Positions 16,712 through 38,876 of a stretch of DNA of 64,000 nt are shown here, piece by piece (position 1 is the stretch's first letter; every line of letters starts with the position of its first letter). Below the pieces are notes generated by a model. It was not told where the DNA came from and made no database searches. It saw nothing but the letters and a program-made list of their open reading frames with translations. The DNA lies in NCBI GenBank assembly GCA_964635905.1, contig CAZWPK010000003.1, forward strand, positions 66,459-130,458. The letters are read 5' to 3'. The translations under genes and the position numbers were made by a program. The DNA comes from an uncultured Pseudomonadales bacterium (GTDB lineage Bacteria; Patescibacteriota; Microgenomatia; UBA1400; UBA12028).

Positions 16712-17146
16712 TTAAGGAGAGCCAGGCAATTGTGTGTTGAATTGCAAAATGGTTTGCACCCCGGTAAAGTTCGCAATAAAACGCAGAATGAGGAACGATG
16801 CTAGAGCTACAACAATTCCTAGTATTGCGAAGGTAAGCGCATTCTTGCCACCTTCAACGCCTTTAGTGTTGCTGCCCGCAGTCAAGTACCGAAACGATCC
16901 CACTAAAAACATTACAAAGGCAGCAATTCCAATCATGGTAATCGCAACAGATAAGACATTAGCGACTAAGCATTCAATTCCTTCAAAAGTGGCGACATCA
17001 TTCTCGCTAGCAACGGTGGAATATCCGTGAACACAGCGATTATTAATCGAGCTCCAGGCACTTGTCTGAGCCGAAGCAGGTGGAGTGTTGAGAGAGAAAA
17101 AATAGAAGGCACTTGTTAATACAATCGCAATTACTTTAAATATCAT
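16712..17146 (-). CDS. VirB2/TrbC-like two-helix pilin family protein
   Basis: Signal peptide (PPASAQTS), then hydrophobic helix - TAGSNTKGVEGGKNALT loop - hydrophobic helix. Paralogous to the array at 18423..21566. Confidence 0.65.
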   Translation of the reverse strand: MIFKVIAIVLTSAFYFFSLNTPPASAQTSAWSSINNRCVHGYSTVASENDVATFEGIECLVANVLSVAITMIGIAAFVMFLVGSFRYLTAGSNTKGVEGGKNALTFAILGIVVALASFLILRFIANFTGVQTILQFNTQLPGSP

Positions 17147-17186
17147 ACGTAAAAAGTGTTATTTATTGACCACTTCAAATTATACA

Positions 17187-18359
17187 CTACTGATGTACTG
17201 TTTGACGCCGAAGTCTTTTTCCTAACACCACTAACAGAGCCAGTAGATATAGCGTTGGTACAAAAGGGAAAACACTCGGATAGAAGGGAGAAAAGTAGGC
17301 TAACAGAAAAGTAAGATACCCAAGAAGAATAAAAACTCTGATTTGAAGGGTTTTCTCCTTCCGTAGGAAAAACAACGGGATGAGGAGTAAGACAGCATCA
17401 TGGACATGCACATGCACGCCGCACAGGAGAATGAGCGGAACGAGCATTGCAAAGACTGCACTACTAGGTGCCAACCATACTTTGTTTTTAACACTCCATA
17501 AGGCTGTGATAAGTGTGGTTAGTCCCGTTAAACCAAGCATCAACAGGGTCGGTTTCAAATTTGGAATCAAGCGATGAAGTTGCCATGCAAATCCCTGCCA
17601 AGAAATCATGGCTTCTTTGCTGTGTTCGGGCGAACTAGATGATACATAGGAGATAAATGTTCCAAAGAAGGTACGCACTTCGGTTCCAAGAATAAAAAAA
17701 GAAAGCAAACTGAGGAGAACTCCTCCGATCAGTAACCCTTTAAGAAATGGTCGTTTCTCTCGAAGCATCCAGTACAAAGTAACGAAAATGGCTATTTGAG
17801 GCTTGTACCAAAGCACGCTTGCCAACAACCCAGCCGTAAATGGCTTATTCTTCTGAATCCGGTTTTGAATTATTAAGAGTAATAAGAGACTAAGTAATGA
17901 AGACTGCCCATTTTTTAAGGTGACAAAGAATGGAATGAAGACGCTTGCCTCAAGGAGCAGTTGACTAAAAGAGAGTTTGATAGTGAATTCAGATTTGATC
18001 AGGTAGATGCAGGCAACAAACACGGCAAGATTAAAACTCACCCATATCCCGAATGCGATGTCGACCGGGAGCCAAGCAAGGGGAGCAAAAAGAAGTGCCA
18101 AATAGGGTGGATTAATAAAGGAGAGTGTATAGAACTTCTTTTCATCGACAGGGAAAAACTGTTTTTGAGTTAGTTCTTGTTGGTCGTTTGTATAGAGACT
18201 AGATGGAGTGGTTTGAAGAATATATCCAGAGCTGTAGAACACACGGAAATCAGAGTCGTAGAGATTTGTTTTAGACAGGAGAAAGGCAAGCCACCCAACC
18301 GTAGCAATCAACACGACTTTTAAATAGAGCTGAACTGCAGACACTGCCTGCTTCATCAC
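17187..18359 (-). CDS. Polytopic membrane protein, DUF2029/GT87-like (GT-C type) glycosyltransferase candidate
   Basis: 390 aa with about 10 TM helices and a DFRVFYSSG motif in the first extracytoplasmic loop, resembling the catalytic-Asp loop of GT87/PimE-like mannosyltransferases. It is embedded between pilin genes. Confidence 0.45.
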   Translation of the reverse strand: MMKQAVSAVQLYLKVVLIATVGWLAFLLSKTNLYDSDFRVFYSSGYILQTTPSSLYTNDQQELTQKQFFPVDEKKFYTLSFINPPYLALLFAPLAWLPVDIAFGIWVSFNLAVFVACIYLIKSEFTIKLSFSQLLLEASVFIPFFVTLKNGQSSLLSLLLLLIIQNRIQKNKPFTAGLLASVLWYKPQIAIFVTLYWMLREKRPFLKGLLIGGVLLSLLSFFILGTEVRTFFGTFISYVSSSSPEHSKEAMISWQGFAWQLHRLIPNLKPTLLMLGLTGLTTLITALWSVKNKVWLAPSSAVFAMLVPLILLCGVHVHVHDAVLLLIPLFFLRKEKTLQIRVFILLGYLTFLLAYFSPFYPSVFPFVPTLYLLALLVVLGKRLRRQTVHQ

Positions 18360-18375
18360 TCTATTCTCTCATAAC

Positions 18376-18402
18376 AAAAACCCCCGCTTAAGCGGGGGTT
18401 TT
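18376..18402 (-). terminator. Rho-independent terminator (bidirectional-capable hairpin) downstream of pilin gene 18423..18827
   Basis: aaaaa-CCCCCGC-ttaa-GCGGGGG-tttt. The 7-bp GC stem is flanked by an A-run and a T-run, so it reads stem plus T-tract on both strands. Confidence 0.7.
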
Positions 18403-18422
18403 ATCTGAGTCAATTTTGTTGA

Positions 18423-18827
18423 TTAGAAACCTTGTGGGATTTCAATCGATCCACCGACACTTGTTCCGAAGAATCGGTTAATCACGGCTGCGATTGCAAA
18501 TGCGGAGGCAACGATTGCAAGTCCGATAATTGCGTTCGTAATCTTTTGTCGTGCACTTTCAGTCTTTGATTTATCTCCACCTGCAGTGAGCCATTCGACT
18601 CCACCCCAGATTAAGTAGATAAAGACTAATAGTCCAACGATTCCTAAAATTAATCGGAGTGCTCCGTTAATTAAGGTTCCAATTTGCGTAATACGGAATC
18701 CTGCTTGACCTGCATCGACATCAATGGAGTCCTCATTTGGGACACCCGCTTGTGCCAAGATAGGGGTTACCGTTGCAAAAAATGTTGCTACAGCTGTAGT
18801 AACAGATGACAATACTTTTTTAGCCAT
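18423..18827 (-). CDS. VirB2/TrbC-like pilin family protein, candidate major pilin
   Basis: Signal peptide ending ILAQA. Mature part has helix - LTAGGDKSKTESARQKITNAIIG - helix. AGGAGA RBS 7 nt upstream. An extended -10 promoter lies upstream and a strong terminator downstream. Confidence 0.75.
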   Translation of the reverse strand: MAKKVLSSVTTAVATFFATVTPILAQAGVPNEDSIDVDAGQAGFRITQIGTLINGALRLILGIVGLLVFIYLIWGGVEWLTAGGDKSKTESARQKITNAIIGLAIVASAFAIAAVINRFFGTSVGGSIEIPQGF

Positions 18828-18864
18828 ATATTCTCCTATTAGTTTACTAATAGCTAGTATAACT

Positions 18865-18873
18865 ATTATACCA
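18865..18873 (-). promoter_or_regulatory. Extended -10 promoter element (TGgTATAAT) for pilin gene 18423..18827
   Basis: Minus strand reads tattatggTATAATagttatac...aataGGAGAatatATG. The hexamer is a perfect TATAAT with an upstream TG and an AT-rich spacer region. There is no good -35. Confidence 0.35.
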
Positions 18874-18936
18874 TAATACTAGGGAGATAACGGGTCAGAG
18901 TCAAGAGAGAACTTACGAAGTATTAGAAGTACTTCT

Positions 18937-19587
18937 TTATGGACACGAAGAACCTGCTTGCCAGGACCATGCTTTGGCAGCACCATTTTGACAGCTGCAC
19001 GGTTCCCAGTGTGCATAAGGAATACCAGTGGTTGTTTGACACTTTACATTAGCGGCAGCACCACCTACACAGTATCCTCCAGCGCCACCATCACTGGAGC
19101 TTACTCCAACCTGACAGATCTGAGTCCCCGTTCCAGAACCACCTGAGCCACCACTTCCGCCGTTGCTGCTACCGGGGACATATTGTTGAGGTTGATTTAA
19201 TCCTAACAAGCTTACTGGGCCACCATTGATTCCTAAGAAGTAGAAGAGAATTCCCACAATCGCAAACACTGATGCAAAAATTGCAAAACCCACTATGGCT
19301 TGCGTAATCATGCTTCGCGCTGCTTCGACTTTGCTTTTATCTCCACCCGCAAGTACCCAGTTAGCACCACCCCAAACTAAATATCCAAATAGAATTAACC
19401 CAGTGATTCCTAGTCCCACATTCGCAAGTCGAGCAATCAGTAATCCTAAATCCACCACAAAGTATCCAGCTGTTCCCGCATCCAAGGTGAGGTCGGGTGT
19501 AGCTCCAGGTGCGCCTTGAGCAAAAATTTGAGAAGGAGCAAGAATGAATAGGAGAATGAGAACAAAGAATATAGTCTTAATATTCAT
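18937..19587 (-). CDS. VirB2/TrbC-like pilin with a C-terminal Gly/Ser linker and a small Cys-rich domain
   Basis: Signal peptide (IFAQGAPG), helix - LAGGDKSKVEAARSMITQAIVG - helix, then a GSSNGGSGGSGGSGTGT linker and about 80 aa containing 6 Cys (CQVG..YCVGG..KCQTT..EPCSC..SSCP). Confidence 0.7.
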   Translation of the reverse strand: MNIKTIFFVLILLFILAPSQIFAQGAPGATPDLTLDAGTAGYFVVDLGLLIARLANVGLGITGLILFGYLVWGGANWVLAGGDKSKVEAARSMITQAIVGFAIFASVFAIVGILFYFLGINGGPVSLLGLNQPQQYVPGSSNGGSGGSGGSGTGTQICQVGVSSSDGGAGGYCVGGAAANVKCQTTTGIPYAHWEPCSCQNGAAKAWSWQAGSSCP

Positions 19588-19595
19588 AGATAAAA

Positions 19596-20036
19596 CTAGA
19601 ATTTTCCACCCATGATAGGAGTGGGAAGATTTTGCAAACCACCTGTTCCGGTTGCCGGAACTTGCTGTCTAGACGAAAAGGTCTTCCCGAAAATATTAAG
19701 CTGAATGCGATCACCAAGTCCGAAGAAGTTAAGGACAATTGCATAGATTGCAAACACCGAGGCGAGGACCACTAGTCCAATTGCTGCTTGGGTCAACGTA
19801 GCGCGGGCTTCTTCCACTTTCCCTTTATCTCCACCGGATGTTACCCATTTAAGCGCTCCTAAAAAGAAGAACACTAATACTGCAAGCGCTCCAACAGTTA
19901 ATGCTGCGCGAGCACCTATTTCAATTAGGTTCCCAAACGTTTGAATAGGTGAGATTTCTAATGTGCGGGACTGTAAGTCAATTACTTGTGTTGGGGTTGT
20001 AGGAGCCTTTGGTGCTTGTGCAAGATAGTTCATCAT
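19596..20036 (-). CDS. VirB2/TrbC-like pilin family protein
   Basis: helix - VTSGGDKGKVEEARATLTQAAIG - helix. No classical cleavable signal peptide. The gap to the upstream gene is 1 bp. Confidence 0.7.
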   Translation of the reverse strand: MMNYLAQAPKAPTTPTQVIDLQSRTLEISPIQTFGNLIEIGARAALTVGALAVLVFFFLGALKWVTSGGDKGKVEEARATLTQAAIGLVVLASVFAIYAIVLNFFGLGDRIQLNIFGKTFSSRQQVPATGTGGLQNLPTPIMGGKF

Positions 20037-20037
20037 A

Positions 20038-20391
20038 TTAAAGATTATTGGCGAACTCTGGTTGTAATAGATTAAAGCCTAATAGACTACTAATGAACAA
20101 ACTGATTGCAACGGTACCCACAAGCACGAGCAGACCGATGATTGATTGGGTAATCCTATTTCGTGCACTTTCAATTTTCCCTTTATCACCTCCGGCCAAA
20201 ATCCATTCCAATGCTCCGTAAATCAACATTACCAGAAGGGCAATGCTTCCTAATGTAACCGCAGTTCGCCACAGAGTAACAATAATATTTCCTAGCGCAA
20301 ATGCTCCTGTTCCTGCACCAAAATCTGCTGTAATTGCAGGGTTAGTAATGACATTCTGGTTTAGCTTTGACTGTGCGATGAATGCAAACAT
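20038..20391 (-). CDS. VirB2/TrbC-like pilin family protein
   Basis: helix - ILAGGDKGKIESARNRITQSIIG - helix. 117 aa. Confidence 0.7.
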   Translation of the reverse strand: MFAFIAQSKLNQNVITNPAITADFGAGTGAFALGNIIVTLWRTAVTLGSIALLVMLIYGALEWILAGGDKGKIESARNRITQSIIGLLVLVGTVAISLFISSLLGFNLLQPEFANNL

Positions 20392-20393
20392 AC

Positions 20394-20756
20394 TTATGGT
20401 GTTAATTTTTGTAATACGGAAATAGGATCTAAAATATCAATTCCTAAAACTCCACCCACAATTCCTGAAATTGCATAGGCAGCAATAACCACGACTAGTC
20501 CGAGAGCAGCTTGTGTCATCTGGCTACGAGCACTTTCAACTTTTCCTTTATCTCCACCAGCTGACACCCAAGAGAGTCCAGCAAAGATTAAGTAGATAAG
20601 AAACATTAAGCCAGCTAGGGCCGTTAAAAATCCAATGAAAGTGCTCACAAAGGTGACAACAGGTGTACCAGCGCCGACTGCGTCCGATCCCGTTGGGGCA
20701 AATGGAGAGGCAATTGGGGCGATAGTTCCGAGTCGGACAGCGATAAGATTAAACAT
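20394..20756 (-). CDS. VirB2/TrbC-like pilin family protein
   Basis: helix - VSAGGDKGKVESARSQMTQAALG - helix. 120 aa. Confidence 0.7.
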   Translation of the reverse strand: MFNLIAVRLGTIAPIASPFAPTGSDAVGAGTPVVTFVSTFIGFLTALAGLMFLIYLIFAGLSWVSAGGDKGKVESARSQMTQAALGLVVVIAAYAISGIVGGVLGIDILDPISVLQKLTP

Positions 20757-20761
20757 AAGTA

Positions 20762-21133
20762 TTATGGTGCCTGTGGAATATCTGGATTCAGGATATACAT
20801 TGCATCGCCAAATAATAGGAAACTGATGATACCTGTGATTCCAAACGAGCCGACAATCACGACTAGTCCGAGTAAACTGTTTGTGAGTTGCTGCATTGCT
20901 TGTTCGGTGGCCTTTGGATTTCCAGCAGAGCCAAGATAAGTGTAGCCGGCAGCTATGATATTAAATAAGCCGAACAAACCAGCAATGATGCTGATAAGTT
21001 TAACTACATTAGAAATGAAGCCGAAGATACCGATGCCACCTTGTGACGCAGCGTTAAAACGCTGTACCCCTGGTGGCGGGGTCACAACCCCGAAAATTCC
21101 TTGTGTGATGAGAACATAAGCGGTTGCGTACAT
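20762..21133 (-). CDS. VirB2/TrbC-like pilin family protein (divergent loop variant)
   Basis: helix - LGSAGNPKATEQAMQQLTNSLLG - helix. The start is placed at the internal Met (MYATAYVLI) to avoid overlapping the upstream paralog. The track ORF extends to 21175. Confidence 0.6.
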   Translation of the reverse strand: MYATAYVLITQGIFGVVTPPPGVQRFNAASQGGIGIFGFISNVVKLISIIAGLFGLFNIIAAGYTYLGSAGNPKATEQAMQQLTNSLLGLVVIVGSFGITGIISFLLFGDAMYILNPDIPQAP

Positions 21134-21146
21134 AGTGTAGTTTTTA

Positions 21147-21566
21147 TTATAGCGTAGAGTTAAAGATTTGGACACCAGTGATCAACTCTACGATTTGTAC
21201 AATCCAGTATGCTGCAAAAATTACTACTAACCCTAAAACGGCGGTGACAATCTGGTTTTTCCCTTGCTCCATGTTTTTGGCGTTCCCACCAGAGGCAATG
21301 ATCGCAAAACCTCCTCCGATCAGGAGAAATAGGAAGATTAACCCAGCAACAATGAATGCTAAAGGAACAAAAAGGTTAAGAAAAGCAGCAAGATTGGGGT
21401 ACAGTGAGCTAACACCCCGATCAACAATTGGTCCTCCAGGATAAACGGGAACTCCTTGGCCAGTTTTTAGTGAGGTTCCCAAGTCGATCTGTGACAAGAG
21501 TGTAAGCATATCTACTATGTAGTATACAATATTGCGTATGACTTTTCCTAAAGAAAAGGAACTCAT
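21147..21566 (-). CDS. VirB2/TrbC-like pilin family protein (divergent loop variant), first gene of the array
   Basis: helix - IASGGNAKNMEQGKNQIVTAVLG - helix. The N-terminus is uncertain (internal Met at ~21509). The annotated start overlaps the divergent sigma-factor start by ~35 bp. Confidence 0.6.
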   Translation of the reverse strand: MSSFSLGKVIRNIVYYIVDMLTLLSQIDLGTSLKTGQGVPVYPGGPIVDRGVSSLYPNLAAFLNLFVPLAFIVAGLIFLFLLIGGGFAIIASGGNAKNMEQGKNQIVTAVLGLVVIFAAYWIVQIVELITGVQIFNSTL

Positions 21567-22071
21567 CGACCGATTGAAGAAGGGTGACGAATCAGCCGTA
21601 CGAGAATGGTACCAAGCTTACGCAACCAAGCTCTTGGGGTTTTTTCACTCCAAAGTGCAGGTGAGTAGCGACGCTGAAGAATTAGTGCAAGATACGTTTC
21701 TCTCCTGTCTTGCCTCACTCCCACTGTTCCGAGGAAGCTCAGGGCTCTACAGCTTTATGTTGGGGATCGCCCGTCATGAATTAGCGGACTATTGGAGAAA
21801 GAAGTACGCTAAGAAAGCCATCTCCGCATTGCCATTCGGTGAAGAGATCTTGCTTTCCCTAGCATCAGATCATTCTTCCCACCAAGACCAAGTCCACAAC
21901 ATTCTGTCTTCGCTTCCCGTTGAAATTTCAGAAGTACTGCTTTTAAAGTATGTGGATGGGTACTCCGTCAAACAACTGGCCGATCAGTTCGGGGTTTCCA
22001 ATGTTGCAATGCAAAGTCGGATCTATCGGGCAAAAGAAGCATTTGTAGCCGAGCTTGCTAAACAGGAATAG
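21532..22071 (+). CDS. ECF-type sigma-70 family RNA polymerase sigma factor
   Basis: Region 2 (ELVQDTFLSCLASLPLF...FMLGIARHELADYWRKK) and region 4 HTH (LLLKYVDGYSVKQLADQFGVSNVAMQSRIYRAKEAF). 179 aa. Confidence 0.8.
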   Translation: MRMTFPKEKELIDRLKKGDESAVREWYQAYATKLLGFFHSKVQVSSDAEELVQDTFLSCLASLPLFRGSSGLYSFMLGIARHELADYWRKKYAKKAISALPFGEEILLSLASDHSSHQDQVHNILSSLPVEISEVLLLKYVDGYSVKQLADQFGVSNVAMQSRIYRAKEAFVAELAKQE

Positions 22072-22073
22072 GT

Positions 22074-22295
22074 ATGAAGATGAACGAAGCAGAGTTTTTA
22101 GGTGTGCTCAAGCAAAAAGCCAGATCGCAAGCCAAAATAGATTCAAGTTCGCCGATCCCAAGTTTTTTAAAACCATTCTTTTCAGCGATGGGACTGCATT
22201 TCTGGCAGTTTTTGCTGGGGTTATCGTTTCTGATCAGCATTCCGGTGAGTATCTTAGGATTCGCAACAATATATAGTAGAGCACTGGGACTGTAA
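22074..22295 (+). CDS. Small membrane protein, putative anti-sigma factor
   Basis: 73 aa, starts 3 bp after the sigma-factor stop. Hydrophilic N-terminus followed by a TM segment (FWQFLLGLSFLISIPVSILGFATIY). Assigned by position only. Confidence 0.4.
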   Translation: MKMNEAEFLGVLKQKARSQAKIDSSSPIPSFLKPFFSAMGLHFWQFLLGLSFLISIPVSILGFATIYSRALGL

Positions 22296-22297
22296 GC

Positions 22298-22591
22298 ATG
22301 AAATTTATTTATCACGTTCTAACAACTATTACAGGATTTCTACTTCATCCCTATCCAACTATGCAAAAAGTGGTCGATCAGGATGTGCCACTGACTTATC
22401 TCTTTTTCCCATTGTTTTTATGTATCTTGGGTTGGTGGATAGCTCGCACCTTTGTAGGTTTCTTCTTAGGTATGTTGCCACTGCTTGGTGTGTGGTGGTT
22501 CTTGGAGGTTTGGTGGCTAGTCTTTTGGGCAAGTTGGCAAATTGTCCTTCTCTATCTGTATCTGCGTTTTCGTTCCATTGCATCGAATTAA
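22298..22591 (+). CDS. Small integral membrane protein
   Basis: 97 aa, Trp-rich, with 3 predicted TM helices. Translationally coupled to the preceding gene. Confidence 0.45.
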   Translation: MKFIYHVLTTITGFLLHPYPTMQKVVDQDVPLTYLFFPLFLCILGWWIARTFVGFFLGMLPLLGVWWFLEVWWLVFWASWQIVLLYLYLRFRSIASN

Positions 22592-22656
22592 TTCTCCCCT
22601 GAATGATTTATTCTCTTTTTCCCGACACTATATATGTCTCTTGGGAAAGGAGAACT

Positions 22657-22893
22657 ATGCAAATCTCACGACACTGGCGACTAAACAGTCAGAGGTACCG
22701 CCTTGAAGGAGTACGGTATCAGAACGGACATGTTAGTCTGCAAAACAGGCCAGTTGTGCTTGAGGTACGAGAATTTCGAGGTAAGGAAATCCTTTCTAAG
22801 GCAGTTGAAGTTGCCAATGCACAGCCAGTGACAGTGACAGAGACAGAGGCAGTGACTGTAGCAGATGTAACGACATATGGAAATCGAACATGA
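22657..22893 (+). CDS. Hypothetical small basic protein
   Basis: Start chosen at MQISRHWRL because an AAGGAGA RBS precedes it. The C-terminus has a VTVTETEAVTV low-complexity repeat. Confidence 0.35.
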   Translation: MQISRHWRLNSQRYRLEGVRYQNGHVSLQNRPVVLEVREFRGKEILSKAVEVANAQPVTVTETEAVTVADVTTYGNRT

Positions 22894-23432
22894 TTAGTAA
22901 TCATCTTGATCAAGTCACACTAGTAAATGCGCAAGATGAGGTCATTGGCTCCATGGATAAAGTTGAGGCGCATAAAGGAGATGGAAAGCTGCATCGAGCA
23001 ATCTCTGTGTTTTTGTTCAACGAGAAGGATGAATTGCTTATTCAGCAACGGAGTGCCAAAAAGATTGTGGGTGCGCATCAATGGGCAAATACCTGTTGTG
23101 GAAATGTTCGTCCCACAGATTCATATCTTGAATGTGCTACACGTAGGCTGTCTGAAGAATTAGGAATTACTGGGGTTACGCTAACACCCATTACTAAATT
23201 CATCTATAAGGTTCGGTGTAATGATGAATTTAGCGAGCATGAGGTAGACACAGTTTTTATTGGTACCTACACAGAGAAGGTTATGCCCAACCCCGGAGAG
23301 GTTCAAGCTTACCAGTGGATTATAAAAAGCGAACTTAGAGCACTGATGGACCAGCAAACTCTATCTTTCGCCCCCTGGGTACAGTTCTTGTTGCAGCAAC
23401 CAAAAGTTCAGAAGGTGTTATATGGTGAATAG
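22890..23432 (+). CDS. idi: Isopentenyl-diphosphate delta-isomerase, type 1 (Nudix fold)
   Basis: HRAISVFLFN, WANTCCGNVRP (catalytic Cys) and RRLSEELGIT align with E. coli Idi HLAFSSWLFN / WTNSVCGHP / RRCRYELGVEI. Confidence 0.8.
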   Translation: MISNHLDQVTLVNAQDEVIGSMDKVEAHKGDGKLHRAISVFLFNEKDELLIQQRSAKKIVGAHQWANTCCGNVRPTDSYLECATRRLSEELGITGVTLTPITKFIYKVRCNDEFSEHEVDTVFIGTYTEKVMPNPGEVQAYQWIIKSELRALMDQQTLSFAPWVQFLLQQPKVQKVLYGE

Positions 23433-24213
23433 TCGAGAAACAGGGGAACGAAGAATTCTGGGTGCACTAGCAGTTATTTCTAATCAGTCAGATATTTTGC
23501 TGATTAAAGATCCCCCCAAAGTAGAAGTTGCTGGTGCACAAAATCCGACAGCTATTAGTTGGTGGTCACGAACCGATAAGTATTCTTGGGGACTGCCTGG
23601 TGGAGGAAGGGGAGTTCAATCGAATGGTCAAGAAGAAACTTTGCTGATGACACTCTCTGGTGAGTTTACGGAAGAAGTAACAAAAAGGGAGGGTCGTCCC
23701 CATCGCAGACTTCCGTCTCCAAATACTAGGAGTGTAACCCAACAACCCTATCCCAACGTGGTGGCACAGGAAAAGAAGATTGAAGGGGAGTCTTTGTTTA
23801 TTCACCAATTTGGTGTGACATCCGTACATATCCCGCATGCGGGACTCACTAAGATCGCGCGCAAAGATATTCAACGAGCTTTGGATGAAGAACGAGCAGT
23901 TTGGATAAGTCTTCAGACACTAATAGACATCTTTAATAGTGAGGACCCTAGGTCAGCAAAAAGCGGTGACTTGAATTTTCGCCCTCAAGTTTTGATGACA
24001 GCGTATATTTGGTACCTGACATTCTCGGGGATTTCACCTTCGCATTTTAATGAAACAATCATTGAATCTAATAAAGGTGTCATTAGTTTTGTTGCAGAGT
24101 ATGCTGCTAGAACATATGGAACAATTAAAAATGGCTCGTTTGACATGAACGGTAGACTTGCTCAGCTAAATACATCAGATCGATTATTCTTACTTGGGAA
24201 GCAACGACAATGA
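23422..24213 (+). CDS. Hypothetical protein with a degenerate Nudix-like box
   Basis: WGLPGGG...SGEFTEEV resembles a Nudix box but lacks the RE dyad. It overlaps idi by 11 bp and the next gene by 4 bp, which suggests an operon. Confidence 0.4.
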   Translation: MVNSRETGERRILGALAVISNQSDILLIKDPPKVEVAGAQNPTAISWWSRTDKYSWGLPGGGRGVQSNGQEETLLMTLSGEFTEEVTKREGRPHRRLPSPNTRSVTQQPYPNVVAQEKKIEGESLFIHQFGVTSVHIPHAGLTKIARKDIQRALDEERAVWISLQTLIDIFNSEDPRSAKSGDLNFRPQVLMTAYIWYLTFSGISPSHFNETIIESNKGVISFVAEYAARTYGTIKNGSFDMNGRLAQLNTSDRLFLLGKQRQ

Positions 24214-25043
24214 AACACAATGTTACCCTTCTAAAGCTCGGTGGAGCAGTCATTACCAACAAGGAAATTCCTGAATCTGTTCGGACAGATGTTCTAGACA
24301 GACTGATTAAAGAAATTTCTCAGGCTCAAAAACAATCTTCTAAATTGCTAGTCCTTGGGAATGGCGCCGGTAGTTTTGCCCATGTTCCGGCGACTCGATA
24401 CAAAACCATCGATGGATTTGTTGGTTCAGATAGCCGAATTGGAATGGCAATAACACAGGATAGTGCCGCACGTCTAAATCGCATCGTGGTTGCATCTTGT
24501 CTTCGTGAGGATATTCCGGCTGTAAGTGTGGCACCCTCCAATTCATTAATTACCGAAGCCAAAGTTGCAACAACCTGGTTCTCGGAGGTCTTTGAAGAGT
24601 ATCTTCGTAACCAATTGACCCCCGTAACCTATGGGGATGTGCTCGTCGATCGAAAGCAAGGCTGTACGATCTGGTCTACAGATAAGGTATTTTCCTTTTT
24701 TGCGCGTCAATTTCAACAGCGTGACTGGAATGTCGAACAGATCATCCATGTGACGGAAGCAACTGGAGTATGGCAAAAGGAAGGCAGTGATTGGAAAATG
24801 GATGGCACGGAGAAAGTCATCTATCCTCAGATTACTCCATCCATGCGGGAAGAGGTAAAATTATCGATGACGGATACAAAAGGATTTGATGTCACCGGTG
24901 GAATGTGGCACAAGATTGAGGAAGCCCTATCGTTAACGGAGTTAGGAATCACCACCAGAATCATATCTGGTCTTGAACCTGGTAATGTATACAAAGTATT
25001 AACCGGTGATACTTCGATTGGAACCACGATACATGGTGATTAA
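24210..25043 (+). CDS. Isopentenyl phosphate kinase (amino-acid kinase fold)
   Basis: LLKLGGAVITNK at the N-terminus and GFDVTGGMWHKIEEAL near the C-terminus match archaeal/Chloroflexi IPK (ILKLGGS..., DVTGGM.YKI). Confidence 0.7.
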   Translation: MKHNVTLLKLGGAVITNKEIPESVRTDVLDRLIKEISQAQKQSSKLLVLGNGAGSFAHVPATRYKTIDGFVGSDSRIGMAITQDSAARLNRIVVASCLREDIPAVSVAPSNSLITEAKVATTWFSEVFEEYLRNQLTPVTYGDVLVDRKQGCTIWSTDKVFSFFARQFQQRDWNVEQIIHVTEATGVWQKEGSDWKMDGTEKVIYPQITPSMREEVKLSMTDTKGFDVTGGMWHKIEEALSLTELGITTRIISGLEPGNVYKVLTGDTSIGTTIHGD

Positions 25044-25045
25044 TT

Positions 25046-25552
25046 ATGCCAGTTGATGATCAAGAAGAATTATTCTATTGGGTTAATGAAGCTGACGAAG
25101 TGCTTGGCAGTATCACGCGGTACCAGGCGCATCACTCCTTTAAACTGCATCGATCTATTGGAATCTTACTACGCAATGAGAAACAGGAGATGCTGTTTCA
25201 GCAGAGATCTCTACGTAAAGATCTCGACGGTGGGTTGTGGTTGTTTGCAGTTGGAGGACATGTAGCATTTGGGGATAGTTACGAGACGACCGCAAATCGA
25301 GAATTACAAGAAGAATTAGGAATTACTGCAGAGCTTACTTTTCTTAGAAAAGTAATATTTAACACAGGGAAGGAATATCAAATGGCCGGTATTTTTTCCG
25401 CAACAATTCCAAAAGCGACACCTTTACAATTAGACCCAATTGAAATTCAAGCAACAGCATGGGTTCCAATCAACGGCATTGCAGTGTTTACGCTCTCGCA
25501 TCCCTGCACTAATTGGACGATTGAAACTCTTAAGCAGACAGGATTTTTGTAG
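25046..25552 (+). CDS. Nudix hydrolase (IDI-like but lacking the catalytic Cys)
   Basis: HRSIGILL.N...GGHVAFGDSYETTANRELQEELGIT Nudix box. VGGH replaces the idi Cys motif. Confidence 0.65.
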   Translation: MPVDDQEELFYWVNEADEVLGSITRYQAHHSFKLHRSIGILLRNEKQEMLFQQRSLRKDLDGGLWLFAVGGHVAFGDSYETTANRELQEELGITAELTFLRKVIFNTGKEYQMAGIFSATIPKATPLQLDPIEIQATAWVPINGIAVFTLSHPCTNWTIETLKQTGFL

Positions 25553-25571
25553 GATACAATAGAGACTTCGT

Positions 25572-26270
25572 ATGAAGCAAACTTCCAACATCCCAAACCA
25601 TCTCGCAATCATCATGGATGGAAATCGTCGTTGGGCACGATCCCATGGATGGGAAGCAATACGTGGTCACGAATACGTAGTCGATAACGTTATCGAACCA
25701 ATCGTGGATCGCTGTATTGAACTAGGTATTTCCTATCTAACCTTGTGGGCATTTAGTACAGAAAATTGGGAACGTGACAAACGCGAAATCGAAGGAATGA
25801 TGCAATTATTCCGACGTGCATTTGAGAAGAAGGTTGAAGACTTACATAAAAAAGGAGTGAAACTCCAGATTATTGGCGATATTGATCGGTTTCCCGAAGA
25901 CATTGCCAACAATGCCAAACGCTGGGTAGAGATATCGAAAGATAACACGAAGATTACGGTGAGCTTTGCGTTAAACTATGGGGGAAGGGAAGAATTGTTG
26001 CGCGCAATCAACTTGCTTCATCAACAGACTCCGACAGCGACAACAATTACCCAAGCTGACCTGGAATTACACCTTGCAACTACAGGCATGCCAGATCCCG
26101 ACTTAATCATTCGTCCTGGTGGACAGTTTCGACTATCCGGATTTTTGCCTTGGCAATCAGTGTATTCGGAGCTGTATTTCACTGACATTCTGATGCCGGA
26201 TTTTCAAGTCAATGAATTAAACGCAGCTTTAGAAGACTATGCCAACCGACAGCGTCGATTTGGCAAATAA
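25572..26270 (+). CDS. uppS: Undecaprenyl/isoprenyl diphosphate synthase (cis-prenyltransferase)
   Basis: HLAIIMDGNRRWA, TLWAFSTENWERDK, and the C-terminal RxG and FLPWQS motifs. Confidence 0.9.
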   Translation: MKQTSNIPNHLAIIMDGNRRWARSHGWEAIRGHEYVVDNVIEPIVDRCIELGISYLTLWAFSTENWERDKREIEGMMQLFRRAFEKKVEDLHKKGVKLQIIGDIDRFPEDIANNAKRWVEISKDNTKITVSFALNYGGREELLRAINLLHQQTPTATTITQADLELHLATTGMPDPDLIIRPGGQFRLSGFLPWQSVYSELYFTDILMPDFQVNELNAALEDYANRQRRFGK

Positions 26271-26738
26271 ACCCTTGTTAATTTCCGCACTTTGTTTCTA
26301 AAAACGTGTATGTTCACGAAGTCGGTTGTGGAGTTGCTCCTGATGTGTTTCCACCCGAGGGAATAGCTGTCGAACCTACTGGAGTCGCAGCACTCATCGG
26401 TCCACTTCCACCTCCCAAAGGGAGCGGTGTACTCACTACTGTAGGTGCGGGAGTCGAACCAAGGAGTGGAAGGGGTGTCCCAGCTTTTCAAACGATGAGT
26501 AGTTGTTCTGGATCCGAACTCATACTGTACTTAGATAAAATGGTGTGTGAAGAACAAAATAAACCGTACGCGTATGTTGTTTCCGACAATGGACAGTGTT
26601 ATGCGGTTTTTACCGCCCTTCAAAACCCCCACAGATCGTGCGATTGAAAAGCTAGGGTGTGAATATGGATTTGGTCCAGGGAATATGTTTAACTTCGGAG
26701 TTTCTAACGTTTCGATTCACTAATTCAAAAGTTCAAAT

Positions 26739-27851
26739 TTACAGAATATCAACGCGTAGGATTAGTTCCACTAATTGAGCTAAGAAATAGGAACAAAAGA
26801 GCAGCAAGAAACCGACAATGGCGTTCGTGATCCGTTGTTTTCCTGCCTCTTGGCTTTTGGGATTTGCGGCTCCAGTGAGCATTTCAAATCCTCCCCACAT
26901 AATCATGACGAAAAGAATGAGTCCGGCAAACGTAAACAAGTAAGGCAATAACCGAGAGATGATCCCTCTGGGGGTCGTGAGATCGGCAGTAGGCTGCTCA
27001 GCGAAAATTGAACTATTTAAGCTATCGAAAAGGGCAGTGGTGTTTTCACATACTCCTCGTGGAAAGGTACAGTCGCCAAGACCACACCCTTGAGTATTAC
27101 CACTGGTGCAGTAACTTGCGCCTCTTGAATTGATATACACCCTTGCATATCCATTTTGACGACAGAGAGCTTCTGCTTGACTGCGAAGCATTAATTGGTC
27201 GACGTTAAGGTTGATCTGTTGCCCCATACTGATCTGTCGAGCGTGCTGTTTTTGTTCTCGACTGCACAAGACATCCGTTCCATTTTCCTCAATACAGGTT
27301 TCTGTAACACTTCCATTTCCTAACAGCTGACACGAATCTGGAGCAAGTGTGAGTTGCGCTTGATTTGCGGTGGCTAAACATTGGGTGTTGGTTGCCTCTG
27401 TCCATCCGCAGCAACGTGCATTCGTTCCGCCAGCCGGATCGGTCAGAGAGATATTGGGGCACGTGGAGGGGCAATTATAATTATCTCGTGCATGTGTCCA
27501 CTTTGTTCCACAGGTTACGGTGCTACCGGGTGGGGCTAGAGGAAGAAAAGCAGATGAACATGCCCATTCGCGTCCCGGACGTTGTTGTGGGGTCTGAGTG
27601 AGTCCTAGCGGTGCAAACGCATCGACCCAGGTTGAATTCCGACAGACATAACACAGATTGTCGGTTCCCCAACACGCAGTTCCTTCCGCATACGATGCAA
27701 GCCCGTTTTCACATTTGGGTCCGCAGAGAGCTTGAGCTTTTGATGGCAGGAAAAATCCGACGCAAAAAAACAAACTAAGAATGAATACTTGGATTGTGAT
27801 TGCACTTCGCACCATCTTCTTAGTGTAGAAGATTTTCCATGATTGGTCCAA
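26739..27851 (-). CDS. Secreted Cys-rich extracellular domain fused to a C-terminal VirB2/TrbC-like pilin module
   Basis: Signal peptide (probable start MVRSAITIQV at ~27815). About 270 aa with 26 Cys. The C-terminal 75 aa (TPRGIISRLLPYLFTFAGL...TGAANPKSQEAGKQRITNAIVG...) match the pilin family and are ~85% identical to 27861..28184. Confidence 0.7.
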   Translation of the reverse strand: MDQSWKIFYTKKMVRSAITIQVFILSLFFCVGFFLPSKAQALCGPKCENGLASYAEGTACWGTDNLCYVCRNSTWVDAFAPLGLTQTPQQRPGREWACSSAFLPLAPPGSTVTCGTKWTHARDNYNCPSTCPNISLTDPAGGTNARCCGWTEATNTQCLATANQAQLTLAPDSCQLLGNGSVTETCIEENGTDVLCSREQKQHARQISMGQQINLNVDQLMLRSQAEALCRQNGYARVYINSRGASYCTSGNTQGCGLGDCTFPRGVCENTTALFDSLNSSIFAEQPTADLTTPRGIISRLLPYLFTFAGLILFVMIMWGGFEMLTGAANPKSQEAGKQRITNAIVGFLLLFCSYFLAQLVELILRVDIL

Positions 27852-27860
27852 CAGTGAGAC

Positions 27861-28184
27861 TTACAAGATGTCTACGCGAAGCACTAATTCGACAAGTTGG
27901 GCGATGAAGTACGAACAGAAAAGCAGCATAAACCCGATGATTGCGTTCATGATGCGATTTTTACCTGCTTCCTGACTTTTAGGATCAGAGGCGCCTGTTA
28001 ACATTTCCATTCCACCCCAAATGATCATGATAAAGAGAATTAGGCCAGCAAAGGTGAAAATATACGGGAGTAATTCAGAGATAATTCCACGAGGGGTTTG
28101 AAACTGTGCGACTTTGGCTGGATCAACACCGTCGAATATTTGATCATTAAGGTCTTGGATGAATTGCGCGTTGGGTTCTACCAT
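27861..28184 (-). CDS. VirB2/TrbC-like pilin module protein without a signal peptide
   Basis: The C-terminal 75 aa are near-identical at the protein level to those of 26739..27851 but diverged at the DNA level. The start is set at the internal Met (MVEPNAQ) to avoid overlap. The track ORF runs to 28232. Confidence 0.55.
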   Translation of the reverse strand: MVEPNAQFIQDLNDQIFDGVDPAKVAQFQTPRGIISELLPYIFTFAGLILFIMIIWGGMEMLTGASDPKSQEAGKNRIMNAIIGFMLLFCSYFIAQLVELVLRVDIL

Positions 28185-28191
28185 AGAAATT

Positions 28192-29538
28192 CTATGTGCC
28201 AAATCCTGGGATTTGAAGGAGTTTAACTCCAATAAACTGAAGAATGATCACAGAAAAGATGATGAATAAAATTCCCATAATTGCAGATGTCACCATCTCT
28301 TGACCTTCTTGCACTCGTTTTGGATCACCAGATGAAGTTGTCAGTAAGAATGCTCCATAGAGGATAACTAGGAGAACGATTCCACCAGCAAGGCCTAAGA
28401 TGATTCGTAAGAATGACTGAATCATACCCGTGGGAGATGTTTGAACACAACCAAAAGCTGTCCACAAACTACTAGGAGCGGCACTATCAGAGACGAGTCC
28501 TTCTTGCCCAGGCTCAGCTCCACCGCCACCTGAACCATAACATCTTAAACACTTATCACGGTCTGTTTGACCTTGAGGACCAGTATTATCTGCTTGTAAG
28601 CAGAGAGCAAAAGCGGGGTTTTCAGTGTCTGCTCCTGGGCCTTCTACCGGATTTCCCGTTTGCGGGTCAATTCTAAATGAAGCGAATTGACATGCGACTT
28701 CTACACCGCCGTTGGAATTTTGTCTTATTAGACGGAAGGAGGCACCATTGTACGACTTGTTAAAGACGTCCGTCACGGTTAAAGATGGAGCACAGTTTGT
28801 GGCTGGTGTACAGTTCGTGGATTGTTCCCGGATTTCCTGTCCATTTGCATTGGTTCCTAAGTACTGAAGGTAATACCACCTACCATCATTAGTATTAAAT
28901 CCATTTGATGGAAAATTTGCAGTAATCGATGTGGTTGTAGCTGATATATTAGCTAATGCTGGAGAGAAAACTACAGCACTGCAGGTAGGTTCCTGCGATT
29001 CGAACTCAGGACTTTCTATGTCTAATAAGCTGAGTATTCTAGAAAGATCTTCTTGGCGACAAATTGTCCAAGACTGAGTTGATAATGTAGCATTTAACGT
29101 TTTTCCTTTAAATTGAGCAACATCTCCAGCTGAGAATTGAACCGAAAAAGTATTTCCAGAACGCAAGAGATTAGCTCCGGAGAAGCTTTTTGAATAACCA
29201 TCCCCTGTAAAGGTTAAGGTTGGAGTCTGACCAGTCATGAATGAATCAAGAGTGGTGGTATTATATGAGGTTTGAACAGATATGGAGATCGTGTCACTTG
29301 GTCCAATTAATGCAATTTGTCCACTCCTGATCCGATCTTGATCAACTTGTGGGAGATGACTGAAGTTACCGTTGGTTGAAAAAAGGATAATTTTACGTCC
29401 ATCTGGGGCTACATAAGATTGAGGAATTGATGTGACAGTACACACTGCAGGCGCCTGAGCGAATGCGTTCTGAACAAAACCTACAAAAAATAGAATGGAT
29501 TGCAGGATGATGGCCAACAACTTAAAAGCAGTCCTCAT
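28192..29538 (-). CDS. Secreted ~370-aa extracellular domain fused to a C-terminal VirB2/TrbC-like pilin module
   Basis: Probable start MRTAFKLLAIIL... with signal peptide NAFAQAP (the track ORF extends to 29616). The C-terminus reads helix - TTSSGDPKRVQEGQEMVTSAIMG - helix. Confidence 0.65.
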   Translation of the reverse strand: MRTAFKLLAIILQSILFFVGFVQNAFAQAPAVCTVTSIPQSYVAPDGRKIILFSTNGNFSHLPQVDQDRIRSGQIALIGPSDTISISVQTSYNTTTLDSFMTGQTPTLTFTGDGYSKSFSGANLLRSGNTFSVQFSAGDVAQFKGKTLNATLSTQSWTICRQEDLSRILSLLDIESPEFESQEPTCSAVVFSPALANISATTTSITANFPSNGFNTNDGRWYYLQYLGTNANGQEIREQSTNCTPATNCAPSLTVTDVFNKSYNGASFRLIRQNSNGGVEVACQFASFRIDPQTGNPVEGPGADTENPAFALCLQADNTGPQGQTDRDKCLRCYGSGGGGAEPGQEGLVSDSAAPSSLWTAFGCVQTSPTGMIQSFLRIILGLAGGIVLLVILYGAFLLTTSSGDPKRVQEGQEMVTSAIMGILFIIFSVIILQFIGVKLLQIPGFGT

Positions 29539-29681
29539 ACCTACTAATTTTACCATGAAGCGTGAAAATCTAGAGGGGGAGATCGATTTTAGGTTAGATT
29601 TATAGATAGGTCTCATATCTTGAGGACATTTCCCACTATCTTCGGGTGTGCGAATGATGAGATCTTCGGTAGAATAGAGAG

Positions 29682-34738: not shown

Positions 34739-35139
34739 GGTGGAGATGCCCGGATTGAACCGGGGTCCGTATATGAACCTTGCCATCGTCTACACACGTA
34801 GGTCATTCTTGATCAAGCTAGATCGGTGAACTTCCAAGCCGTATTCTAGCGTCTCCAATGCTAAATCTTTTATCGGTAGGATTGGATACGACCGACAAGT
34901 CACACTGACTGGGTTTCCACCCATTCGCTTACATCAGTGAGATAAGACGAATGAATGCTAGCTTAAGCTAATGCGTAAGCTGGTTGTTCGTTGGTGCCAA
35001 ACACGAAGTTTGCCACACGAGCGAACAAGTTGCTAAGTTTTGAGTTAGCAGTTATTGTTTTGGCTCTGTTTTACATCTTCTCTAGCCAAAGATGGTGTGC
35101 AGATGGTAAAGAGCGATACACGTCGAAACGTACATCCCC
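34739..35139 (-). ncRNA. ssrA: tmRNA (SsrA), standard one-piece form
   Basis: Minus-strand 5' end GGGGAUGUACGUUUCGACGUG (the conserved UUCGACG). The 3' end has a T-arm CCCGG-TTCAAT-CCGGG and an acceptor CATCTCC-A-CC pairing with the 5' GGGGATG. An internal ORF encodes the tag ANFVFGTNEQPAYALA followed by TAA. The 3' end abuts the smpB stop. Confidence 0.8.
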
Positions 35140-35182
35140 AAAGGGACACTTAGTATAGCAGCTTCCCTCTAGTATTTCAAAT

Positions 35183-35953
35183 TTATTCCCCATGGGCGAG
35201 TACTAGCGCAACGACGACTTTCACCCCGGATTTTTTAAGTGTTCGGGCACATTCCTGAAGCGTAGACCCCGTTGTACAGACATCGTCGATGAGAATGACT
35301 TTTGGGGGAATTTTTGACGAATTTGGAACTGAAATATTCATGGAATCTTTGAGATTGAGGAGACGGTGTTCCCGCGATAGCTGAGCTTGCGGTGGTGTGC
35401 TTTTTGTTTTTATTAAGAGGTTTGGAAGTAGATAGATGCCAAGTTTGGTTGATAATTGTTGTGCATACAACTGGCTTGCATTAAATCCTCGTTCCCACCG
35501 CTTTTTCCAGTGCAGTGGAACCGGAACGATGGCAGTTGTTTGTCTTGAAAACGAGTTCCAAATTCCAAGTTTTTCCCCTTGCCAATGCAGGAGATTCCCA
35601 CCCAGACTTGCCATATCATAGATGAGACGATATTTAACTGCTCTAATTAATATGGCGATGACTCCATCATAGTTTGAAACGGCATACAGCCCATCCAGTG
35701 TCGTTTTACTTTTACACCGGCTATGTACTCCAAAATGGTTGAGTTCTTTCATGCAGCCAGGGCAAAGGTACGTAGAATTGAAATGCATCGTTTGAAAACA
35801 GGTTGAACAGAGATAGTCCCCAAAGGCACCACATCCGATACAGTCTTTGGGAAAGATAACGTCCAAGAGAAACGTAAGATGCCCCATATTCTTAGCATAC
35901 ATCGTTCTCAAGATGTCTGATATACTAGAGGTACGGATTGAAGATTGTGGCAA
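35183..35953 (-). CDS. comFC: ComF family protein (competence phosphoribosyltransferase, ComFC-like)
   Basis: N-terminal zinc-ribbon Cys pairs (CIGCG..C..C, CPGC) and the C-terminal PRTase motif VILIDDVCTTGSTL. The true start may be the internal Met at ~35902. Confidence 0.75.
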   Translation of the reverse strand: MPQSSIRTSSISDILRTMYAKNMGHLTFLLDVIFPKDCIGCGAFGDYLCSTCFQTMHFNSTYLCPGCMKELNHFGVHSRCKSKTTLDGLYAVSNYDGVIAILIRAVKYRLIYDMASLGGNLLHWQGEKLGIWNSFSRQTTAIVPVPLHWKKRWERGFNASQLYAQQLSTKLGIYLLPNLLIKTKSTPPQAQLSREHRLLNLKDSMNISVPNSSKIPPKVILIDDVCTTGSTLQECARTLKKSGVKVVVALVLAHGE

Positions 35954-35978
35954 AAAATACGGCCACTTTTATCAATGG

Positions 35979-36065
35979 GGAGAGGTCGCATAGTGGCCTA
36001 GTGCGGAAGTCTTGAAAACTTCTGTGGGTTTACGCTCACCGTGGGTTCGAATCCCACCCTCTCCG
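35979..36065 (+). tRNA. tRNA-Ser (anticodon UGA), type II with a long variable arm
   Basis: Acceptor GGAGAGG/CCTCTCC, anticodon stem GAAGT/ACTTC with loop CUUGAAA, T-arm GTGGG-TTCGAAT-CCCAC, discriminator G. Confidence 0.8.
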
Positions 36066-38791: not shown

Positions 38792-38796
38792 TGTAG
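37808..38796 (+). pseudogene. IS30-family DDE transposase split by a -1 frameshift into two ORFs
   Basis: ORF1 37808..38380 carries the HTH and the first Asp (GHWEGDSVVG). ORF2 38326..38796 carries DNGKEF and WQRGTNENTNG. The catalytic triad is therefore split across frames, and no canonical slippery heptamer is visible in the overlap. Confidence 0.65.
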
Positions 38797-38876
38797 GAAA
38801 CTTAGTTGAGAGAATCAATATGGTATTATAGGTGATATAGAGACTACTATCTCTTTCAGTAAACAGGAGGTTTTGT

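Follow-up and report, generated by a model that had tools for sequence, protein, structure and literature searches.

Genomes of the candidate phyla radiation (CPR), mostly those of Microgenomates, encode mevalonate (MVA) pathway enzymes together with an archaeal-type isopentenyl phosphate kinase (IPK) (Hoshino & Gaucher 2018, PMC6107057). The IPK gene of these genomes is commonly syntenic with the gene for type-1 isopentenyl-diphosphate isomerase (IDI-I), and the MVA genes cluster with that for a cis-isoprenyl diphosphate synthase (cis-IPPS); the function of the CPR IPK is uncharacterized (PMC6107057). In the alternative mevalonate pathway of Chloroflexi and haloarchaea, IPK acts after mevalonate kinase (MVK) and phosphomevalonate decarboxylase, in this order (Dellas et al. 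2013, PMC3857490). In plants, as outlined in those passages of PMC8248349 that deal with the work of Henry et al. (2015, 2018), cytosolic IPK and Nudix hydrolases set the balance of isopentenyl phosphate (IP) and dimethylallyl phosphate (DMAP) against isopentenyl diphosphate (IPP) and dimethylallyl diphosphate (DMAPP), and with it the flux to prenyl diphosphates. Here, we describe a block of five plus-strand genes that encode IDI-I, a divergent Nudix-fold protein (protein B), IPK, an IDI-derived Nudix protein (protein D) and the cis-prenyltransferase UppS. The block occupies positions 22890–26270 of a 64-kb stretch of contig CAZWPK010000003.1 (hereafter, the window), which was inspected together with ~13 kb of extra flank, ~77 kb in total.

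We consider it rather probable that this block is a late-isoprenoid, lipid-carrier operon of a Patescibacteria bacterium of the Microgenomates/Woesebacteria type, with a valve formed by protein D and IPK and with IP supplied by mevalonate genes elsewhere. In this operon, IPK would convert IP to IPP, IDI-I would equilibrate IPP with DMAPP, and UppS would use IPP to make the polyprenyl diphosphate that carries peptidoglycan precursors. Protein D would return IPP and DMAPP to IP and DMAP and, together with IPK, would set the balance between monophosphates and diphosphates in the manner of the plant IPK/Nudix pair, while protein B would serve as a dedicated, lineage-specific Nudix accessory that has kept its metal-binding Glu residues. 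We infer the activities of proteins B and D, the cycling between IP and IPP and the source of IP from the evidence set out below. The estimates of probability attached to this and to other readings are not meant to sum to one, for several of them concern different parts of the block and can hold together.

The five open reading frames (ORFs), A to E, encode proteins of 180, 263, 277, 168 and 232 amino acids (aa), respectively. ORFs A and B overlap by 11 nt and ORFs B and C by 4 nt, and gaps of 2 nt and 19 nt separate ORF C from ORF D and ORF D from ORF E. We infer that the five genes form an operon of a small-genome bacterium of the Patescibacteria/Woesebacteria type, co-transcription being deduced from gene spacing alone. 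A promoter and terminator scan of positions 21300–26900 gave counts at chance level, and no regulatory RNA was detected near the block with Rfam. The identical five-gene block was present in three Logan contigs, and the same five genes were present in a relative with a 94% identical IPK. More widely, the order IDI, a variable slot, IPK and UppS was found in ~30 related CPR loci among the Logan, JGI, NCBI and GTDB genomes. Since many independent contigs share this gene order, the block has not arisen by chance juxtaposition. The slot between IDI and IPK holds a B-family protein of 250–306 aa, a shorter protein of 177–214 aa with a Nudix box and the same terminal 'RP(F/Q)' motif as protein B, short ORFs, or nothing. 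Protein D is confined to the clade of the window, and a D-like gene (25–35% identity, by alignment) is present in the related loci L024 and L037, where it lies directly upstream of uppS, as the gene for protein D does in the window. The core of the block is therefore IDI, IPK and UppS, with a B-like Nudix protein as a frequent partner and protein D as an occasional one.

ORF A (22890–23432, plus strand) encodes IDI-I, the enzyme that interconverts IPP and DMAPP. It exceeded the cutoffs of two NCBIfam equivalog models, NF002995 (148.2 bits; cutoff, 127) and TIGR02150 (129.8 bits; cutoff, 105.8), and its best PDB matches were the Salmonella and Escherichia coli IDIs (~1e-20). In E. coli IDI, Cys67 and Glu116 carry out the proton transfers, and the roles of Tyr104 and Trp161 are likewise known from E. 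coli structures. ORF A keeps H25, H32, C67, E87, Y104, E114, E116, W161, K21, R51 and K55 (E. coli numbering), and Cys67, Glu116, Tyr104 and Trp161 were common to ORF A and 13 CPR homologues in the alignment. Among the metal ligands, His25, His32, Glu114 and Glu116 are kept, while His69 is replaced by Asn in ORF A and in every CPR IDI-I aligned. Because this substitution is clade-wide, Asn at this position probably represents a functional variant rather than decay.

ORF C (24210–25043, plus strand) encodes an IPK of the archaeal/Chloroflexi type, which forms IPP from IP and ATP. The score against the NCBIfam model NF040647 (IPPK_Arch) was 185.5 bits (cutoff, 120); the proB and FomA models gave 22 and 24 bits, respectively, and the PDB search returned the archaeal IPKs 3ll9, 7n9d and 3k4o at 6e-28 to 2e-24 and FomA at 1e-4. 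The motifs LKLGGAVITNK, GAGSFAH, PVTYGD, DVTGGMWHK and IGTT, placed on the numbering of the Methanocaldococcus jannaschii enzyme by motif matching, agree with the conserved IPK residues K6, G8, G9, K15, G54, H60, P140, G144, D213, T215, G216, K221, G253 and T254 (Dellas et al. 2013, Table 2, PMC3857490). Close homologues of this IPK were all encoded in metagenome-assembled genomes (MAGs) of Woesebacteria, Cerribacteria, Pacebacteria or the 'Patescibacteria group'. ORF E (25572–26270, plus strand) encodes UppS, an undecaprenyl-type polyprenyl diphosphate synthase, with 233.5 bits against the TIGR00055 uppS model (cutoff, 109.55), E = 1.3e-73 against PF01255 and an intact catalytic motif DGNRRWA, present as IIMDGNRRWA.

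The gene identities given in the original prediction held throughout: five tightly packed plus-strand genes, a type-1 IPP isomerase with its catalytic Cys, an archaeal-type IPK and UppS were all recovered at these positions by the scores above. Aspartokinase and glutamate-5-kinase, which it had named as the alternatives to IPK, were ruled out for ORF C by the model and PDB scores. Its two Nudix-fold proteins were likewise confirmed, protein D by a direct Pfam match and protein B via remote evidence alone (family profile and predicted fold), and its remark that the genome looked reduced fits a CPR/Patescibacteria genome.

Protein D, encoded by ORF D (25046–25552, plus strand), matched the Pfam NUDIX family (PF00293) at 2.8e-16, and its PDB matches were DR0079, IDI and YfcD. 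In the alignment with E. coli IDI and 13 CPR IDIs, protein D shared 33% identity with ORF A. Residues H25, H32, H69, E114, W161, R51 and K55 are retained, and Arg stands in place of K21; three further positions are substituted, Cys67 by Gly, Glu116 by Gln and Tyr104 by Phe. The retained residues are those that bind the metals and the diphosphate in E. coli IDI. The Nudix box, GHVAFGDSYETTANRELQEELGI, is near-canonical: G-HVAFG-D-SYETTAN-RELQEELGI aligns with GX5EX7REUXEEXGU, with Asp for the first Glu. Because the ligands of the metal and the diphosphate are kept, Cys67 and Glu116 are lost and a Nudix box is present, protein D is predicted to be a C5 prenyl diphosphate hydrolase. It is probably an IDI duplicate that binds C5 prenyl diphosphates and hydrolyses IPP and DMAPP to the monophosphates instead of isomerizing them. 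An isomerase activity of protein D was considered and rejected: it scored 60 and 46 bits against the IDI models, below the cutoff (60 compared with 127), and the catalytic Cys67 and Glu116 are lost.

Among described proteins, protein D is most similar to the branch formed by IDI, E. coli YfcD and Deinococcus DR0079, and the isomerase Cys is absent from protein D as it is from YfcD and DR0079. Its scores against the YfcD model (50 bits; cutoff, 152) and against NF041653, the model of the Methanosarcina Nudix protein (43 bits; cutoff, 300), were far below the cutoffs, and of all its relatives the CPR IDI encoded next to it is the nearest. An IPP/DMAPP-specific Nudix hydrolase of the IDI-like group exists in the archaeon Methanosarcina. 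With regard to the plant system, the cycle between IP and IPP that the original prediction had taken as known is indeed documented there, in the passages of PMC8248349 referred to above. As in plants, IPK co-exists with predicted Nudix hydrolases in the block. The plant genes are unlinked, whereas the partners in the block lie in a single operon that includes UppS. Nor are the plant hydrolases paralogous to IDI: AtNUDX1 is only a weak match for protein D (2e-4).

The position of the gene for protein D directly before uppS also raises the question of whether this protein, or protein B with its additional domain, is a cytoplasmic pyrophosphatase that turns new polyprenyl diphosphate (undecaprenyl diphosphate, C55-PP) into the monophosphate carrier. 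The D-uppS adjacency is found in two distant clades, that of the window and that of L024 and L037, and the window yielded neither a BacA nor a PAP2 domain. In bacteria, the phosphatase that acts in the cytoplasm on C55-PP made de novo is still unidentified (PMC12401180), and some Nudix enzymes hydrolyse prenyl diphosphates, as described for plant NUDX1 (PMC8857926). Nevertheless, the IDI residues kept by protein D (W161 and the metal ligands among them) fit a buried C5 diphosphate, and nothing in the protein points to a long groove for a lipid. The conserved residues in the C-terminal domain of protein B are polar (R187, N217 and N237) and not hydrophobic, neither protein has a membrane-association feature, and UppS is encoded without protein D or B in many related loci. 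We therefore regard this role as quite improbable and prefer the prediction that protein D acts on C5 diphosphates.

Protein B, encoded by ORF B (23422–24213, plus strand), consists of a divergent Nudix-fold N-terminal domain and a C-terminal domain. Protein B itself matched no Pfam or NCBIfam family at E values up to 10 and gave no match in a PDB sequence search. A word-indexed search returned only five homologues, and a profile search of 1.84 billion representatives returned 55 B-family proteins of 216–385 aa (most of them 240–310 aa), nearly all matching near full-length. This is a CPR-restricted, previously undescribed family. PF00293 was matched by 34 of the 55 members (best, 4e-9), and a search of PDB with the family profile returned Nudix chains only (E, 0.004–1). 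An AlphaFold2 model of protein B based on the 55-sequence alignment had a pLDDT of 91.2 and a pTM of 0.90; it replaced a model based on a five-sequence alignment (pLDDT 35), which was discarded. The 50 PDB matches listed by Foldseek for this model were Nudix-fold proteins, nearly all hydrolases, with a best TM-score on the target of 0.5–0.6, and included YmfB/NudJ, Orf135, NudI, NUDT22 and ADP-ribose pyrophosphatases. These matches span only the N-terminal domain of ~140 residues (about residues 1–140). The C-terminal domain (~120 aa) has no detectable homologue, a profile search of PDB having returned no match; it contains an invariant R187-P188, together with N217, N237 and G238.

The conserved positions of the B-family Nudix box are G61, G62, R63, E72, E81, E84 and E85. 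In detail, E72, E81, E84 and R63 were each conserved in 52 of the 55 members, and E85 and R187 in all 55. The Nudix-box Arg was present in 35 of 55; the copy in the window has Gly at this position and keeps E81, E84 and E85. The spacing from Gly to the first Glu is nine residues, compared with ~5 in the usual box, as in about half of the family. The ratio dN/dS of protein B to its L004 orthologue was ~0.15, indicating that protein B is under purifying selection. Taken from its sequence conservation, protein B is a real, divergent, CPR-restricted Nudix protein that is probably catalytic.

A role of protein B other than hydrolysis, either as an NrtR/AraR-like ligand-sensing regulator or as a scaffold or partner subunit of IDI, is suggested by its gene position, since its first 11 nt overlap the end of idi, a translational coupling that would reflect complex formation, and since it always lies directly after idi in the loci examined. 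The missing box Arg in the window copy and the insertion of four to five residues in the box of about half of the family would agree with such a role, as would the presence of the Nudix-type regulator AraR (5bs6) among the weaker fold matches. In contrast, non-catalytic Nudix domains do not usually retain the metal-binding box Glu residues, as 52–55 of 55 members do here; NrtR structures were absent from the 50 fold matches listed, and the C-terminal domain matches nothing, winged-helix domains included. We thus consider a regulator or partner subunit unlikely. The more specific assignment of protein B as an NrtR-like regulator was not supported, the match to AraR being weak and partial (TM-score, 0.31–0.36).

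Nudix genes are common in this DNA. Besides ORFs A, B and D, the window contains two canonical Nudix genes on the plus strand, at 47195–47641 and 62248–62763, so that, with IDI included, the 64 kb contain five genes of the Nudix fold. A CPDase/2H-phosphoesterase gene (47920–48432) follows the former. The two Nudix genes of the block could then be housekeeping, 'sanitising' hydrolases of the MutT or ADP-ribose type that merely sit in the operon, and the absence of proteins B and D from many related loci points in the same direction. Set against this, B-family genes lay between those for IDI and IPK in every context examined, and no other context was found for the family; protein D, moreover, is specifically an IDI paralogue with its ligand residues kept and is not of the MutT type. 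We regard housekeeping functions as very unlikely, and a dedicated function of both proteins in the isoprenoid operon is preferred here.

The IP used by this operon most likely derives from a mevalonate route, comprising MVK and a decarboxylase similar to mevalonate diphosphate decarboxylase (MVD-like), that is encoded elsewhere in the genome. The evidence comes from relatives (L numbers denote related loci). In the Woesebacteria loci L037 and L024 (IPK, 55% identical), the gene order was IDI, hydroxymethylglutaryl-CoA reductase (HMGR), the corresponding synthase (HMGS), thiolase, a 95-aa protein, B, IPK, adenine glycosylase (Tag), the D-like protein and UppS. In L036 (IPK, 50% identical), it was Nudix, MVK, MVD-like and IPK, followed by thiolase, HMGS, HMGR and UppS on the other strand, and in L028 it was IDI, racemase, MVD-like and IPK. 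In all four loci, the mevalonate genes sit between the same flanking genes as the block in the window. A search with CPR HMGRs, in which contig sharing was judged by equal sizes among the best 120 of 5073 matches, placed HMGR and IPK on one contig in at least four relatives at 50–55% IPK identity (395125, 68960, 38152 and 25868 bp). A scan of metagenomes with CPR HMGRs gave the order HMGR, MVK, MVD-like and IPK in at least 11 of the 80 loci listed; no contig of the window's clade was among the matches listed. Since MVK and an MVD-like decarboxylase are its usual partners, IPK more likely ends a mevalonate route than serves a stand-alone salvage. The decarboxylase of L036 was nearest to 6n0x, the phosphomevalonate decarboxylase of Anaerolinea (265 bits, compared with 204 or less for canonical enzymes). 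The resemblance to the alternative mevalonate pathway thus extends to the IPK family and to the MVK–MVD-like–IPK operons of relatives, with the difference that genes for MVK and the decarboxylase are absent from the window. The HMGR–MVK–MVD-like–IPK operon was located at L036:1159–3808 and in L053, L054, L059, L066, L068, L070, L073, L076, L078, L106 and L119. Between IPK and the thiolase, HMGS and HMGR genes of L036 (3832–6672) lie genes for proteins of 463 aa and 479 aa that matched no Pfam or NCBIfam family.

A small ORF upstream of idi (22657–22893, plus strand; 78 aa when read from its ATG at 22657, with 22603 as the start of the ORF at its longest) also bears on the mevalonate genes. Its stop overlaps the idi start codon, and it had no Pfam match. 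In L022 (8–229), L023 (7491–7709) and L029 (7519–7752), the corresponding ORF is a zinc ribbon with the pattern RHWRL..L.GE.CP.C...FPPR..CP.C, and the peptide of these relatives reads as DUF35_N-like. DUF35_N-type zinc ribbons are partners of archaeal thiolase and HMGS. In the window and in L004, L009, L016 and L021, the pattern is RHWRLN..RYRLEGVRY.NG.VSLQ.RP; all four Cys are lost, and the first ~35 residues are still conserved despite this loss. The Cys-less ORF could be left over from an upper mevalonate module that has since disappeared, or its peptide could have been put to a new use.

Several points weigh against the proposed operon with its valve and its remote mevalonate genes. Neither the 64-kb window nor the ~13 kb of extra flank yielded a gene for MVK, MVD, HMGR or HMGS or any gene of the methylerythritol phosphate (MEP) pathway, and no MVA or MEP gene lay within 10 kb of IPK in any relative with at least 60% IPK identity. 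Because mevalonate genes are lacking near IPK in these close relatives, the source of IP in the clade of the window is unproven. In the relatives, the MVD-like proteins score above the cutoff of the diphosphomevalonate decarboxylase model, and their KYWGK and GSGSA motifs resemble those of that enzyme, so that a route of decarboxylation followed by phosphorylation is only putative even there. For an energy-poor organism, it looks wasteful that a single operon should encode both a hydrolase and a kinase for one pair of metabolites. Given the number of Nudix genes in the window, their association with the block may be partly incidental, and the absence of proteins B and D from many related loci means that neither is essential to the core. 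Finally, some CPR genomes retain IPK and IDI and lack most MVA genes (PMC6107057).

The first and the last of these points are also what would be expected of pure salvage, in which the organism has no de novo IPP synthesis, IP, isopentenol or prenyl phosphates come from the host or the environment, IPK activates them, IDI and UppS consume them and the Nudix proteins recycle or trim the scavenged prenyl diphosphates. MVA and MEP genes were found neither in the ~77 kb around the block nor near IPK in the closest relatives, IPK lies next to IDI-I in some of the CPR that lack most MVA genes (PMC6107057), and the small ORF, having lost its zinc-ribbon Cys, resembles a decaying partner of thiolase or HMGS. 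However, the window belongs to a contig of 147,574 bp within a larger MAG, and most of the genome lies outside the ~77 kb inspected. Furthermore, relatives with the same flanking genes have mevalonate genes in the locus, and no transporter and no alcohol kinase was found in the operon with Pfam and NCBIfam. The lifestyle of CPR bacteria is generally a scavenging one, which agrees with salvage, but we know of no natural uptake route for IP or isopentenol. In addition, a Nudix and IPK pair only cycles IP and therefore gives no net supply of it. We regard pure salvage as possible but doubtful. The original prediction had proposed a module for both salvage and cycling: the cycling part is a reasonable hypothesis for protein D and IPK, in so far as the residues of protein D make hydrolysis of IPP and DMAPP plausible, and the link to UppS is conserved; the salvage part is not established, and relatives carry mevalonate genes in the locus.

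A bolder variant is that the Woesebacteria-type clade of the window no longer has mevalonate genes in the locus or, possibly, anywhere in the genome, and that protein B, with its Nudix fold, its novel domain and its constant place between IDI and IPK, is a new enzyme making IP from a scavenged or unconventional precursor, or that protein B or D dephosphorylates the polyprenyl diphosphate, in which case IDI, B, IPK, D (where present) and UppS would form a self-contained lipid-carrier route in a symbiont. This variant appears unlikely to us, and a late-isoprenoid operon fed by mevalonate genes elsewhere remains the preferred reading.

Compared with the CPR clusters of Hoshino & Gaucher (PMC6107057), the block has the same three core genes, for IPK, IDI-I and a cis-prenyltransferase, and stems from a similar organism. 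For CPR, this synteny of IPK, IDI and cis-IPPS is already published, which partly pre-empts the original prediction. That article contains neither 'Nudix' nor 'hydrolase' and does not describe the B family, protein D, the small ORF upstream of idi or the linkage to a sigma factor of the extracytoplasmic function (ECF) type (PMC6107057), and the further papers examined that treat both CPR and IPK make no mention of Nudix. The new features are the CPR-specific B family of Nudix proteins fixed in the interval from idi to the IPK gene, a putative hydrolase derived from IDI beside uppS and the conserved neighbourhood of the ECF sigma factor and pilin genes. The role of the CPR IPK is left open in the literature (PMC6107057), and the present locus shows that it is nearly always encoded in one operon with IDI, UppS and a dedicated Nudix family and, in some lineages, with an IDI-derived putative hydrolase as well. 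Four small soluble proteins thereby become candidates for how ultra-small bacteria feed or regulate the lipid carrier of peptidoglycan, their only obvious essential isoprenoid. A second question is whether bacteria possess a plant-like valve between IP and IPP or, instead, a salvage route. Should the Nudix proteins prove ordinary, what remains is simply a known kind of CPR cluster with good annotation.

The flanks of the block are conserved as well. In related loci, a pilin-like gene array, an ECF sigma factor gene and two or three small ORFs lie upstream, and pilin-like genes and SpoIID lie downstream. In the window, arrays of PF18895 'T4SS pilin' genes, encoding small and large proteins with a C-terminal motif, occupy 16712–21566 and 26739–29616 on the minus strand, at positions conserved across relatives. 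The ECF-type sigma factor gene (21532–22071, plus strand; Pfam Sigma70_r2, Sigma70_r4_2 and Sigma70_ECF) has the same position in relatives. It is followed on the same strand by two small hydrophobic ORFs of 73 aa (22074–22295) and 97 aa (22298–22591), which matched no Pfam or NCBIfam family; small ORFs lie at the same positions in relatives. The three lie directly upstream of the isoprenoid genes with gaps of 2–11 nt, and nearly every related locus shows the same synteny. The sigma factor gene is the first of a co-directional array that ends with uppS and may be co-transcribed with the block or act as its regulator, and one of the hydrophobic ORFs may encode an anti-sigma factor or membrane partner. 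This linkage suggests envelope-stress control of the lipid-carrier supply. Of the sequenced relatives, L004 is the one closest to the window; between the two, the small ORF was 57%, IDI 71% and protein B 69% identical, compared with 94% for IPK, 86% for protein D, 94% for UppS and 95% for the ECF sigma factor. This mosaic divergence suggests that the left half was replaced by recombination or that the constraint on it was relaxed. Just downstream of uppS lies a 113-aa ORF with a GTG start (26306–26647, plus strand), without a family match; it is present in the near-identical L001–L003 and is replaced by other genes in L004. Among the GTDB records with the CPR-type locus (L016, L017, L021, L026, L027, L029, L031 and L032), several are titled 'uncultured Pseudomonadales' or 'Vitreimonas sp.' and are likely mislabelled.

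Elsewhere, the window encodes many small PF18895 proteins, FtsH, NusA, IF2, DnaG, Ddl, SpoIID and tmRNA, along with many ORFs that belong to no family; a cluster-mate of FtsH bears the name Candidatus Woesebacteria. A mobile-element-type gene group at 34739–40863 comprises tmRNA and SmpB, tRNA-Ser(TGA), a large serine recombinase (36036–37817, minus strand), a split HTH_38/rve transposase (37808–38796, plus strand) and a Fic-MerR fusion protein (39877–40863, minus strand), and looks like a mobile element integrated beside the tRNA and tmRNA genes. A further tRNA-Ser (45400–45485, plus strand) has the anticodon loop TTACTAA and the anticodon ACT, which is unusual for bacteria, and a normal tRNA-Ser(GCT) is encoded 2.3 kb away, at 47738–47826.

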